Shown here piece by piece: positions 14,958 to 17,070 of a stretch of 64,000 nucleotides of DNA. This DNA is from Escherichia coli (GTDB lineage Bacteria; Pseudomonadota; Gammaproteobacteria; Enterobacterales; Enterobacteriaceae). The notes beneath the pieces were generated by a model. It made no database searches. It saw nothing but the letters and a program-made list of their open reading frames with translations, and was not told where the DNA came from. The DNA lies in assembly GCF_044324875.1 (NCBI RefSeq), contig NZ_CP172185.1; one strand, written 5' to 3'. The position numbers and the translations under genes were made by a program. How positions within the stretch are numbered: position 1 is the stretch's first letter; each line of letters opens with the position of its first letter.

Positions 14958-15314
14958 AAAGTCCTGTCCAGAAAGAAGTCGGCCTCGCAAAAATGAATAA
15001 ACCCAGTTTCTCTTGCGCAACAGGTGGAGAAGTCGAATACGCAGTATGTAAAAAATGAGGCAACAGATTCACTGGGGAGGTCGCGAGGAGGCGCAATTCT
15101 ACAAAATTGCGCATTTCACTACCAGTCTGGAGTCAGCTCGGATATGAACTGCAACTATTGCAAATAAAGAAATTAAGCTGGAAGGCATCGCGCAATGAGG
15201 AAGATTGCCGGGTGCTGACGGTAAAAAGCAATCGTAAAATCAGCGGCAAGCCGGAAAGGTTCCGGTGAGGCGCAATGTTGCGGGGGCTTAATCCCTGGTG
15301 GCATTGGTTGCTGG

Positions 15315-15382
15315 AGAGAGAAAACCCCCGCACGTTGCAGGTATGCACCTGACAACACCACGGGGGCCATTCTTGCATCCAA
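15315..15382 (-). ncRNA. rdl: Rdl antisense RNA, copy 1 (ends approximate)
   Basis: Minus-strand ...GCCCCCGTGGTGTTGTCAGGTGCATACCTGCAACGTGCGGGGGTTTTCTCTCT, GC hairpin plus U-run, antisense to the ldr leader; matches remembered RdlD. Confidence 0.45.
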
Positions 15383-15432
15383 ACAATACAAGAATAGCCG
15401 CGAAACGTTGTCATTACAACTCAGGCGGCTAT

Positions 15433-15540
15433 ATGACGCTCGCAGAGCTGGGCATGGCCTTCTGGCATGATTTAGCGGCTCCGGTCATTGCTGGCATTCT
15501 TGCCAGCATGATCGTGAACTGGCTGAATAAGCGGAAGTAA
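15433..15540 (+). CDS. ldr: Ldr type I toxin peptide (35 aa), copy 1
   Basis: MTLAELGMAFWHDLAAPVIAGILASMIVNWLNKRK. Confidence 0.8.
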   Translation: MTLAELGMAFWHDLAAPVIAGILASMIVNWLNKRK

Positions 15541-15797
15541 CGTGTCAGACGGGCGTCAGGCTGCCGTAATGGCAATTTGCGCCCGGACCAGGCCGCAGGG
15601 ATAAAACTCTGCGGCCTTTTTCGTAAGAAAAATGCAACGGTTGCAAGCGGATAATATTCTGCTGAATGCACAGCACAGAGTGAAGAAGTGATGGATTTCG
15701 ACGAACAAAAATGGCCGTAGAATCAGCGGCAAGCCGGAAGGGTTCCGGTGAGGCGCAATGTTGCGGGGGCTTAATCCCTGGTGGCATTGGTTGCTGG

Positions 15798-15865
15798 AGA
15801 GAGAAAACCCCCGCACGTTGCAGGTATGCACCTGACAACACCACGGGGGCCATTCTTGCATCTAG
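15798..15865 (-). ncRNA. rdl: Rdl antisense RNA, copy 2 (ends approximate)
   Basis: Same sequence as copy 1, offset by one repeat period. Confidence 0.45.
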
Positions 15866-15915
15866 ACCATTCAAGAATAGCCGCGAAACGTTGTCATTAC
15901 AACTCAGGCGGCTAT

Positions 15916-16023
15916 ATGACGCTCGCAGAACTGGGCATGGCCTTCTGGCATGATTTAGCGGCTCCGGTCATTGCTGGCATTCTTGCCAGCATGATCGTGA
16001 ACTGGCTGAACAAGCGGAAGTAA
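15916..16023 (+). CDS. ldr: Ldr type I toxin peptide (35 aa), copy 2
   Basis: Identical peptide to copy 1. Confidence 0.8.
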   Translation: MTLAELGMAFWHDLAAPVIAGILASMIVNWLNKRK

Positions 16024-16280
16024 CGTGTCAGACGGGCGTCAGGCTGCCGTAATGGCAATTTGCGCCCGGACCAGGCCGCAGAGGTGAAACTCTGCGGCCT
16101 TTTTCGTAAGAAAAATGCAACGGCTGCAAGCGGATAATATTCTGCGGAATGCGCAGCACAGAGTGAAGAAGTGATGGATTTCGGAACAGAAAAACAGTCG
16201 TAGAATCAGCGGCAAGCCGGAAGGGTTCCGGTGAGGCGCAATGTTGCGGGGGCTTAATCCCTGGTGGCATTGGTTGCTGG

Positions 16281-16348
16281 AGAGAGAAAACCCCCGCACG
16301 TTGCAGGTATTCACCTGACAATATGACGGGGGCCATTCTTGAACCTAC
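16281..16348 (-). ncRNA. rdl: Rdl antisense RNA, copy 3 (ends approximate; a few substitutions)
   Basis: Repeat-unit homologue; GGTATTCACCTGACAATATGACGGGGG differs from copies 1 and 2. Confidence 0.4.
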
Positions 16349-16398
16349 ACAACTCAAGAATAGCCGCGAAACGTTGTCATTACAACACTGGCGGCTAT

Positions 16399-16506
16399 AT
16401 GACGCTCGCAGAGCTGGGCATGGCCTTCTGGCATGATTTAGCGGCTCCGGTCATTGCTGGCATTCTTGCCAGCATGATCGTGAACTGGCTGAATAAGCGG
16501 AAGTAA
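16399..16506 (+). CDS. ldr: Ldr type I toxin peptide (35 aa), copy 3
   Basis: Identical peptide to copy 1. Confidence 0.8.
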   Translation: MTLAELGMAFWHDLAAPVIAGILASMIVNWLNKRK

Positions 16507-16763
16507 CGTGTCAGACGGGCGTCAGGCTGCCGTAATGGCAATTTGCGCCCGGACCAGGCCGCAGAGGTGAAACTCTGCGGCCTTTTTCGTAAGAAAAATG
16601 CAACGGCTGCAAGCGGATAATATTCTGCGGAATGCGCAGCACAGAGTGAAGAAGTGATGGATTTCGACGAACAAAAATGGCCGTAGAATCAGCGGCAAGC
16701 CGGAAGGGTTCCGGTGAGGCGCAATGTTGCGGGGGCTTAATCCCTGGTGGCATTGGTTGCTGG

Positions 16764-16831
16764 AGAGAGAAAACCCCCGCACGTTGCAGGTATGCACCTG
16801 ACAACATCACGGGGGCTAATCTTGAACCCAA
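16764..16831 (-). ncRNA. rdl: Rdl antisense RNA, copy 4 (ends approximate)
   Basis: Repeat-unit homologue with substitutions. Confidence 0.4.
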
Positions 16832-16881
16832 ACAACTCAAGAATAGCCGCGAAACGTTGTCATTACAACAGAGGCGGCTAT

Positions 16882-16989
16882 ATGACGCTCGCAGAACTGG
16901 GCATGGCCTTCTGGCATGATTTAGCGGCTCCGGTCATTGCTGGCATTCTTGCCAGTCTGATCGTGAACTCGCTGAATAAGCGGAAGTAA
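16882..16989 (+). CDS. ldr: Ldr type I toxin peptide, copy 4, variant (M26L, W30S)
   Basis: MTLAELGMAFWHDLAAPVIAGILASLIVNSLNKRK. Confidence 0.7.
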   Translation: MTLAELGMAFWHDLAAPVIAGILASLIVNSLNKRK

Positions 16990-17039
16990 CGTGTCATGCG
17001 GGCGTCAGGCTGCCGTAATGGCAATTTGCGCCCGGATCA

Positions 17040-17070
17040 GGCCGCAGGGGTGAAACTCTGCGGCCTTTTT
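17040..17070. terminator. hairpin plus T-run between the last ldr copy and the bcsG stop; could terminate either
   Basis: GGCCGCAG-GGGTGAAACT-CTGCGGCC followed by TTTTT; the same hairpin follows every ldr copy. Confidence 0.6.

Follow-up and report, generated by a model that had tools for sequence, protein, structure and literature searches.

What is the long repeat that lies between yhjV and bcsG in this stretch of Escherichia coli DNA, how did it come about, and are its units alike? In the window, i.e. the whole 64-kb stretch that was analyzed, the region can with high confidence be read as four LdrD/RdlD type I toxin-antitoxin modules ('long direct repeat' elements, LDR) that were generated through tandem duplication combined with unequal homologous recombination. 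Both the LDR-D locus ldrD/rdlD of K-12 and the tandem duplication of ldr-rdl were reportedly described by Kawano in 2002. Overproduction of K-12 LdrD kills the cell and causes rapid condensation of the nucleoid (PMC4147584, PMC8309996). RdlD, which overlaps the 5' UTR of ldrD and not its RBS (PMC4147584), represses ldrD translation post-transcriptionally in K-12 (PMC4147584, PMC2943612), and the ldrD/rdlD duplex is a dsRNA cut by RNase III (PMC7373196). Tandem, lineage-specific duplication of ldr-rdl was reported by Fozo et al. in 2010, Shigella sonnei harbouring 10 genes of the Ldr/Fst type (PMC2887945).

Architecture of the array

A repeat search of the 64-kb window unveiled four head-to-tail units at 15224–17075 with a period of 483 bp and 93–96% identity to copy 1, the in-register copies starting at 15224, 15707, 16190 and 16673. 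Tandem Repeats Finder reported a single array as well (15233–17073, period 483, 3.8 copies, 95% matches, no indels). On the plus strand, units 1 (15224–15706), 2 (15707–16189) and 3 (16190–16672) comprise the full 483 bp; unit 4 (16673–17075) ends 3' of its terminator, comprises about 402 of the 483 nt and adjoins the stop codon of bcsG. The array is flanked by yhjV on the left (13686–15020 on the minus strand for the longest ORF, annotated with 423 aa in relatives) and by bcsG on the right (17076–18755, minus strand), with 2,055 bp (15021–17075) separating the two genes. The 82 nt directly left of unit 1 (15142–15223, plus strand) are homologous to the inter-unit spacer, though diverged from it, and are present in K-12 as well.

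These features are those of an LDR element at the LDR-D locus: a unit of about 0.5 kb which holds both genes with terminators on both strands, here repeated four times in tandem, located between yhjV and bcsG, whose ORFs match the annotation in 11 genomes used for comparison, one of them a K-12 derivative. Four head-to-tail 483-bp units at this site, as opposed to a single one in K-12, had been claimed in the original prediction, and both statements are borne out by the two repeat analyses, the flanking ORFs and the K-12 derivative, which carries one ldrD between yhjV and bcsG. The prediction had also called the array the largest non-IS repeat of the window; as the sole direct or inverted repeat of at least 80 nt it is in fact the largest repeat outright.

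As a 1.85-kb repeat with a period of 483 bp exceeds the length of short reads, assemblies built from such reads can get the copy number wrong, and the true number of units might be lower or higher if the four-unit array came from a mis-assembled repeat. However, all four units are distinct, any two of them differing by 16–26 substitutions over 402 nt. An artificial expansion would yield identical copies, and an assembly artefact is therefore very unlikely.

Toxin genes, antisense RNAs and control signals

All four units contain a plus-strand ORF of 35 aa. The peptide of ORF 1 (15433–15540), MTLAELGMAFWHDLAAPVIAGILASMIVNWLNKRK, matches the Pfam family PF13940 (Ldr_toxin) over residues 1–35 of 35 (E=1e-26, 93 bits) and is identical at 34 of 35 positions to LdrD in PDB entry 5LBJ, with L3 here versus F3; database sources label such peptides as 'type I toxin-antitoxin system toxin Ldr family protein'. 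ORFs 2 (15916–16023) and 3 (16399–16506) encode the same peptide. An NCBIfam scan of both peptide versions returned no family, probably because a query of 35 aa is too short.

The second version is encoded by ORF 4 (16882–16989) and carries the replacements M26L and W30S. Consequently, the peptides of units 1 to 3 end in ...IVNWLNKRK and that of unit 4 in ...IVNSLNKRK; the charged tail is retained and the tryptophan following the transmembrane helix, a signature of the Ldr/Fst superfamily (Fozo et al., PMC2887945), is lost. The W30S exchange is a detail beyond the original prediction. In addition, unit 3 lacks an in-frame upstream ATG at unit column 120, the frame of which runs into ldr in 28 of the 32 units examined. 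With respect to these two differences the units need not be equally active, and the array might be partly decayed, such that only some units work, the toxin of unit 4 is attenuated and the additional copies are carried along neutrally by unequal recombination instead of serving as functional modules. We consider this doubtful. None of the four ORFs is disrupted, their SD and start context is unchanged, and the W30S peptide was found on at least 1000 contigs, unlike a fresh loss-of-function allele. Furthermore, among 52 units from 22 arrays the diversity of the ldr ORF is low (pi 0.028), with its minimum at codon position 2 and 0.052 at third positions, as expected under purifying selection or homogenization.

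The antitoxin genes argue in the same direction, as all four clearly exceed the Rfam threshold. On the minus strand of every unit a full-length match to Rfam RF01813 (rdlD, model positions 1–66 of 66) was obtained, scoring 78.3–90.4 bits against a gathering score of 50: Rdl1 at 15319–15384 (81.7 bits), Rdl2 at 15802–15867 (81.8 bits), Rdl3 at 16285–16350 (78.3 bits) and Rdl4 at 16768–16833 (90.4 bits). With the same geometry in all units, the 66-nt Rdl is complementary to the leader 49–114 nt upstream of the ldr start codon, so that the overlap with the 5' UTR ends 49 nt before the ATG and leaves RBS and start codon clear. Independent MFE folds agree with the covariance-model match and predict for all four Rdl a free 5' tail of 11 nt, after which the RNA forms a long terminator stem-loop (z-scores -3.2 to -5.0).

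Terminator-like hairpins were identified in every unit on both strands, one on the plus strand after the ORF and one on the minus strand which ends Rdl, amounting to eight compared with 2.3 ± 1.5 expected. The ldr mRNA terminator of unit 1 (15590–15622, plus strand) consists of an 11-bp GC-rich stem and a T run, with equivalents at 16073–16105, 16556–16588 and 17039–17071. The Ldr ORF, minus-strand Rdl and terminator hairpin proposed for each unit are hence recovered by the Pfam/PDB, Rfam and terminator analyses. For Rdl of unit 1 a putative minus-strand promoter lies at 15391–15419 (-35 TTGTAA, 17-nt spacer, -10 TATTCT, 6 nt before Rdl +1); its equivalents at +483, +966 and +1449 are invariant in nearly all units, which likewise speaks against decay. 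On the plus strand, candidate -10 elements of the ldr promoter are TAAAAT in unit 1 (15235–15240) and TAGAAT at 15718–15723, 16201–16206 and 16684–16689. A sigma-70 scan at a threshold of 9/12 found no promoter in the array; the promoters named here are 8/12 consensus matches that were assigned in the sequence from their position and conservation.

For the full-length ldr mRNA, which should measure about 375 nt, a strongly structured fold is predicted (z=-7.1), in which RBS and start codon would be sequestered by pairing with the 3' UTR, resembling inactive hok mRNA. RNAalifold on eight ldr mRNAs yielded no compensatory pairs, the sequences being too similar to lend the structure covariation support. 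Each unit provides a long leader followed by the gene of the 35-aa hydrophobic Ldr peptide, with the 66-nt Rdl encoded in the opposite direction; according to the proposed mechanism, Rdl would make its first contact with ldr mRNA through its free 5' tail at the loop of a leader hairpin. Three upstream ORFs in the ldr leader are candidates for ldrX, which is said to be defined in a 2012 review by Kawano; upstream start codons are ATG at unit columns 52 and 120 and TTG at column 185. Coupling of the leader ORF ldrX to ldrD is an unconfirmed hypothesis for the translational block (PMC4147584, PMC8309996). In analogy to hok/sok, zorO-orzO and ibs-sib, a small membrane toxin would be encoded by a long mRNA of predicted structure, and the antisense RNA would use its free 5' tail to meet a leader loop rather than the toxin RBS. 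An upstream ORF proposed as intermediary (mok or ldrX) and chromosomal tandem duplicates with near-identical antitoxins are further parallels to systems of the hok/sok type. The toxin families and RNAs are unrelated, however, and in ldr/rdl both the coupling ORF and the inhibition by fold-back are proposals or predictions.

In comparison to ldrD/rdlD of K-12, the units have the yhjV-bcsG locus, 34 of 35 toxin residues (units 1–3), a minus-strand rdlD antisense to the 5' UTR and the terminators in common, as well as the diverged flank upstream of the first unit. They differ in number (four versus one), in the M26L and W30S replacements of the unit 4 toxin and in their Rdl tails, none of the four being of the K-12 type.

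Copy number across E. coli

To place the four-unit state within the species, array lengths were compared in two systematic samples drawn from 5,426 complete E. coli genomes, a comparison that the original prediction had called for. The first, of 59 chromosomes, contained one unit in 23, two in 6, three in 20 and four in 10. In the second, three inter-unit spacers, which correspond to four units, were present in 18 of 60 genomes. Overall, the spacer occurs in 3262 of the 5426 complete genomes at 6715 places, with up to four per genome. About 17–18% of complete E. coli genomes carry four units at the locus, as agreed by both samples, and about 40% carry one, among them O157:H7 and K-12; the maximum is probably five. 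The range of one, two, three, four and probably five units across strains fits the earlier claim that tandem copies permit unequal recombination and changes in copy number. The rarity which that prediction had implied for the four-unit state is not supported, as this state is frequent and already annotated: NCBI PGAP assigns four Ldr CDS ('Ldr family protein') in four-unit genomes.

The arrangement of the units also fits unequal recombination, by which a unit of about 483 bp would have been duplicated in tandem at a locus with one copy in K-12. As expected for this process, unit types sit at differing array positions among strains; the type of unit 1 of the window takes second place in the arrays of O26:H11 and strain B, but first place in that of Ec-U4-19. 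Four-unit arrays in RefSeq (such as those of NZ_AP022298, O26:H11 FWSEC0001 and NZ_OZ547164) share the locus, the 483-bp period and four annotated Ldr CDS with the window and differ in unit order and type by strain. The closest of them, NZ_AP022298, has units 2–4 in common in type and order and deviates from the window at 24 positions over 2901 nt; for any record in the collection, identity to the window across the region does not exceed 99.2%. The recurrence in complete-level genomes of arrays that agree in unit number, period and flanks, and the shared order in NZ_AP022298, also stand against mis-assembly. On the other hand, many strains are single-unit, indicating that extra copies are dispensable, which lends some weight to the partial decay considered above.

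A published precedent for tandem ldr-rdl modules is ldrABC/rdlABC of K-12 at the chaA-kdsA locus (PMC4147584, PMC2887945), likewise a head-to-tail series of LDR units that each encode a toxin and an antisense RNA of their own. It differs in locus and Ldr subgroup, LdrA being 57% identical to LdrD (PMC8309996), and in a pair of the LdrA type the units were spaced by about 519 bp, versus 483 bp in the window. 'Plasmid' Ldr matches were considered as a mobile form of the array and rejected; the one examined is a chromosomal chaA-ldr-kdsA segment on a plasmid. The four-unit state is an ordinary copy-number variant, a frequent allele of a common polymorphism. The module, its tandem duplication and the four-unit allele are already known, having been described or annotated before.

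A variable segment in the antitoxin tail

Unit variability was computed on MAFFT alignments, as some units contain 1-nt indels. Among the 52 units of 22 arrays, diversity peaks at unit columns 145–165 with a pi of 0.21, compared with 0.03–0.05 elsewhere and 0.052 at third codon positions, and 10 of 39 highly polymorphic columns fall within this 21-nt segment (Fisher p=4e-6). In unit 1 the segment spans 15368–15388, with equivalents at 15851–15871, 16334–16354 and 16817–16837. According to the alignment and folds it covers the predicted free 5' tail of Rdl plus the 4 nt before the Rdl start and, on the ldr mRNA, would simultaneously form a hairpin loop of the 5' UTR. This concentration of divergence is a detail beyond the original prediction.

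The segment could set antitoxin specificity. A tentative extension would be that it is a diversified recognition code, in which selection maintains variability, with homogenization acting on the remainder of the unit. The units might then be orthogonal, each Rdl mainly recognizing its own ldr mRNA via the contact of 5' tail and loop, so that the array would comprise several independently controlled toxins; we regard this as possible, yet improbable. The four Rdl of the window differ mutually at 2–8 positions, 2–5 of which are in the tail, and near-identical tandem antitoxins do discriminate in Sib/Ibs (PMC2943612) and OrzO/OrzP (PMC8167048). However, Rdl1 and Rdl2 differ at just 2 of 66 positions, and some arrays carry two units with identical tails (units 3 and 4 of array L004, units 1 and 4 of L005). 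Units residing in one array differed only marginally more than randomly paired units did (permutation test without correction for relatedness, P=0.048), and this value was excluded from the support for specificity. Furthermore, weak constraint could also give rise to high diversity at the segment, since complementarity within a cis-encoded pair is automatic.

As a discovery, the four-unit array matters little. Taken as LDR modules multiplied by unequal recombination, it marks K-12 as the minimal state of a locus which ranges from one to about five units across E. coli and whose 1.85-kb repeat can be collapsed by short-read assemblies. If the segment does act as a recognition code, a four-unit array would hold as many as four toxin-antitoxin pairs insulated from one another, and unequal recombination would reshuffle strain-specific repertoires. 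The natural variants of the Rdl tail, combined with a near-invariant toxin, are ready material for studying how Rdl recognizes and silences ldr mRNA.

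Organization of the array and its products

Tandem Repeats Finder reported one array at 15233-17073 with a period of 483, 3.8 copies, 95% matches and zero indels, and a repeat finder placed four copies in register, starting at 15224, 15707, 16190 and 16673, with copies 2, 3 and 4 being 96%, 95% and 93% identical to copy 1. Multiple alignment gave a mean column identity of 93% for the four units, the last of which stops past its terminator. The three analyses agree with the originally predicted extent (15225-17070) and unit length of 483 bp as well as with four tandem units, and the array, which had been called the largest non-IS repeat of the window, is in fact its sole repeat of at least 80 nt. 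It is flanked by yhjV and bcsG, between which a K-12 derivative carries a single ldrD, as had been stated for K-12. To the left of unit 1 lie 82 nt that are related to the inter-unit spacer but diverged from it, in K-12 as well, which fits an old duplication of a ~0.5 kb unit. In a metagenome contig with a single-unit ldr locus (L012, 3195-4874) the adjoining bcsG is split into ORFs of 304 and 246 aa, suggesting a pseudogene in that strain.

Each unit holds a 35-aa ldr ORF on the plus strand (15433-15540, 15916-16023, 16399-16506 and 16882-16989). The peptide common to units 1-3, MTLAELGMAFWHDLAAPVIAGILASMIVNWLNKRK, aligns with Pfam PF13940 (Ldr_toxin) over its whole length (E=1e-26) and is identical to K-12 LdrD (PDB 5LBJ, NMR structure) at 34 of 35 positions. 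The unit 4 peptide carries M26L and W30S and is hence devoid of the tryptophan which Fozo et al. named as signature of the Ldr/Fst superfamily (PMC2887945). This variant is recorded on at least 1000 contigs, and the same peptide is encoded next to bcsG in other strains (L002, L008) as well.

On the minus strand, Rfam RF01813 (rdlD antitoxin) was matched at full length at 15319-15384, 15802-15867, 16285-16350 and 16768-16833, with 78-90 bits versus a gathering score of 50. All four Rdl RNAs share a predicted fold (z-scores -3.2 to -5.0), in which an 11-nt free 5' tail is followed by a long stem-loop finishing in a U run. Eight terminator-like sites were observed in the array versus 2.3 expected; each unit has a strong plus-strand terminator past the ORF and an Rdl terminator on the minus strand, so that the contents predicted for the unit were all recovered. 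Except for the tryptophan missing in unit 4, the array fits every sequence-testable feature of the LDR family. From the K-12 ldrD/rdlD locus it differs in copy number and allele types only, whereas the K-12 ldrABC array differs from it in locus and Ldr subgroup. A version of the ldrABC locus that has a single Ldr gene (chaC-chaB-chaA-ldr-kdsA-sirB) was also seen on the 195-kb plasmid p23AR0151A (NZ_CP195449.1, 119638-125001), which looks like a chromosomal fragment captured by the plasmid.

Copy number across E. coli

That the four-unit array is an assembly artefact is unlikely, since a false expansion would yield identical copies, whereas all unit pairs of the window differ by 16-26 substitutions over 402 nt. 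Furthermore, NZ_AP022298, the closest of the complete genomes, shares units 2-4 with the window in unchanged order and shows 24 mismatches over 2901 nt. The window itself is of E. coli chromosomal type (dpp-yhjV-bcs-gad region); GadY (51966-52079, minus strand, 150 bits), ES205 (57859-57930, minus strand, 105 bits) and tRNA-Pro(CGG) (5885-5961, plus strand) are consistent with the dpp-bcs-gad region. For 8000-24000 and 36000-56000 the best complete RefSeq E. coli matches reached 98.9-99.2% identity and none was higher, with the closest strains differing between both segments. Judged from these matches, either the lineage lies outside the complete RefSeq E. coli collection, being possibly Shigella or an unsampled lineage, or the region is mosaic.

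Array length was compared across strains in two independent surveys. A search with 5 kb spanning the locus hit 5425 of the 5426 complete E. coli genomes; 60 rows were taken from the ranking at regular intervals, of which 59 were chromosomes and one was a plasmid. One unit was found in 23 of the 59 chromosomes, two in 6, four in 10 and three in 20; the joining rule of the search had split 14 of these last 20 rows, and one of the 14 was checked directly. The second survey searched for the 82-nt spacer between units, a sequence that single-unit loci lack, and located 6715 occurrences in 3262 of the 5426 genomes, with no genome having more than four; three spacers, equivalent to four units, were present in 18 of 60 evenly sampled genomes. 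Both surveys agree on four units in ~17-18% and one unit in ~40% of complete genomes, and the maximum at the locus is probably five. Three units are found in strain B/BL21 and one in O157:H7, and four-unit genomes carry four genes annotated as "Ldr family protein" by the NCBI pipeline. Tandem and lineage-specific duplication of ldr-rdl has been described, and Shigella sonnei Ss046 was found to have ten Ldr/Fst genes (PMC2887945). At this locus, whose polymorphism is known, the four-unit array is a common allele that has already been annotated.

Promoters, leader and repression by Rdl

In K-12, overproduced LdrD causes growth arrest and nucleoid condensation within minutes, and RdlD prevents both (PMC4147584, PMC8309996). 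RdlD acts at the level of translation, yet without overlapping the ldrD initiation region (PMC2943612), and an RNase III-dependent 21-nt dsRNA peak lies where both transcripts overlap (PMC7373196). Reviews describe the mechanism of repression as unknown, and the leader ORF ldrX, proposed by analogy to mok/hok to couple Rdl binding and ldrD translation, as unconfirmed (PMC4147584, PMC8309996).

All four units keep every sequence element of the K-12 system intact. The putative ldr -10 element lies at unit columns 12-17 (TAAAAT in unit 1, TAGAAT in units 2-4), and the Rdl promoter would consist of TTGTAA, a 17-nt spacer and TATTCT, 6 nt before the Rdl start; both fell under the threshold of the promoter scan. 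The Rdl promoter is nearly invariant (pi 0.005 among 52 units). An LdrA-type pair in Escherichia sp. E1V33 (519-bp spacing, peptide end ...AAIVSWWRSRK) shares a 21-nt anchor of this region, allowing at most 2 substitutions, with the LdrD-type units, so that conservation of the region seems to extend to both Ldr subgroups. A contig of a 'Bacillus sp.' assembly (NZ_JABWSY010000055.1, 503 bp, coverage 0.66) contains 30 nt identical to the E. coli Rdl promoter region, almost certainly because this assembly is contaminated with E. coli DNA.

As its end lies 49 nt upstream of the ldr start codon, Rdl pairs with the leader, not the ribosome-binding site. For the ldr mRNA (379 nt), an unusually high degree of structure is predicted (-178.6 kcal/mol, z=-7.1). 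In the model, the 3' UTR (15551-15577) is base-paired with SD and AUG (15408-15443), and 15269-15275 is joined to 15578-15584 by a 5'-3' clamp, an arrangement resembling the translationally inert full-length hok mRNA; full-length ldr mRNA would likewise be folded back. No covariation supporting this fold was found in the aligned units because they are too similar.

Three ldrX candidates emerged: a 25-codon ORF with ATG at column 52, shared by all four units; an ATG within the Rdl target (column 120), which in units 1, 2 and 4 is in frame with ldr with no stop between and in unit 3 is lost; and, again in units 1, 2 and 4, a 20-codon TTG ORF overlapping the start of ldr. In unit 3 (16309-16326) the column-120 codon is ATT, versus the in-frame ATG of most units, and a new ATG 14 nt downstream opens a 37-codon ORF in another frame overlapping the ldr start. 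Unit 3 of NZ_AP022298 carries the same allele.

A hypervariable Rdl tail

Nucleotide diversity, computed over 52 LdrD-type units that belong to 22 arrays, peaked at unit columns 145-165 (15368-15388, 15851-15871, 16334-16354 and 16817-16837), with pi of 0.21 versus 0.03-0.05 elsewhere and 0.052 at third codon positions, i.e. about fourfold the latter. These 21 nt hold 10 of the 39 highly polymorphic columns (Fisher p=4e-6). They comprise the free 5' tail of Rdl and a few bases ahead of its start, and also form the loop of a predicted ldr mRNA hairpin (stem 15369-15375/15389-15395).

The tails fall into about ten discrete types, which recur at array positions that vary by strain. The window joins the types at positions 1-2 of strain Ec-U4-19 to those at positions 3-4 of NZ_AP022298, exactly what unequal recombination would produce. 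Together with the varying unit number, the same types at differing positions are in line with the expectation that tandem copies permit unequal recombination and copy-number change.

Specificity has been shown for the Sib (PMC2943612) and Orz (PMC8167048) antitoxins. Units residing in one array differed only marginally more than pairs taken at random (P=0.048, uncorrected), and identical tails occur within some arrays. We regard it as rather doubtful that selection has made the tail/loop segment a specificity code by which the units are orthogonal.
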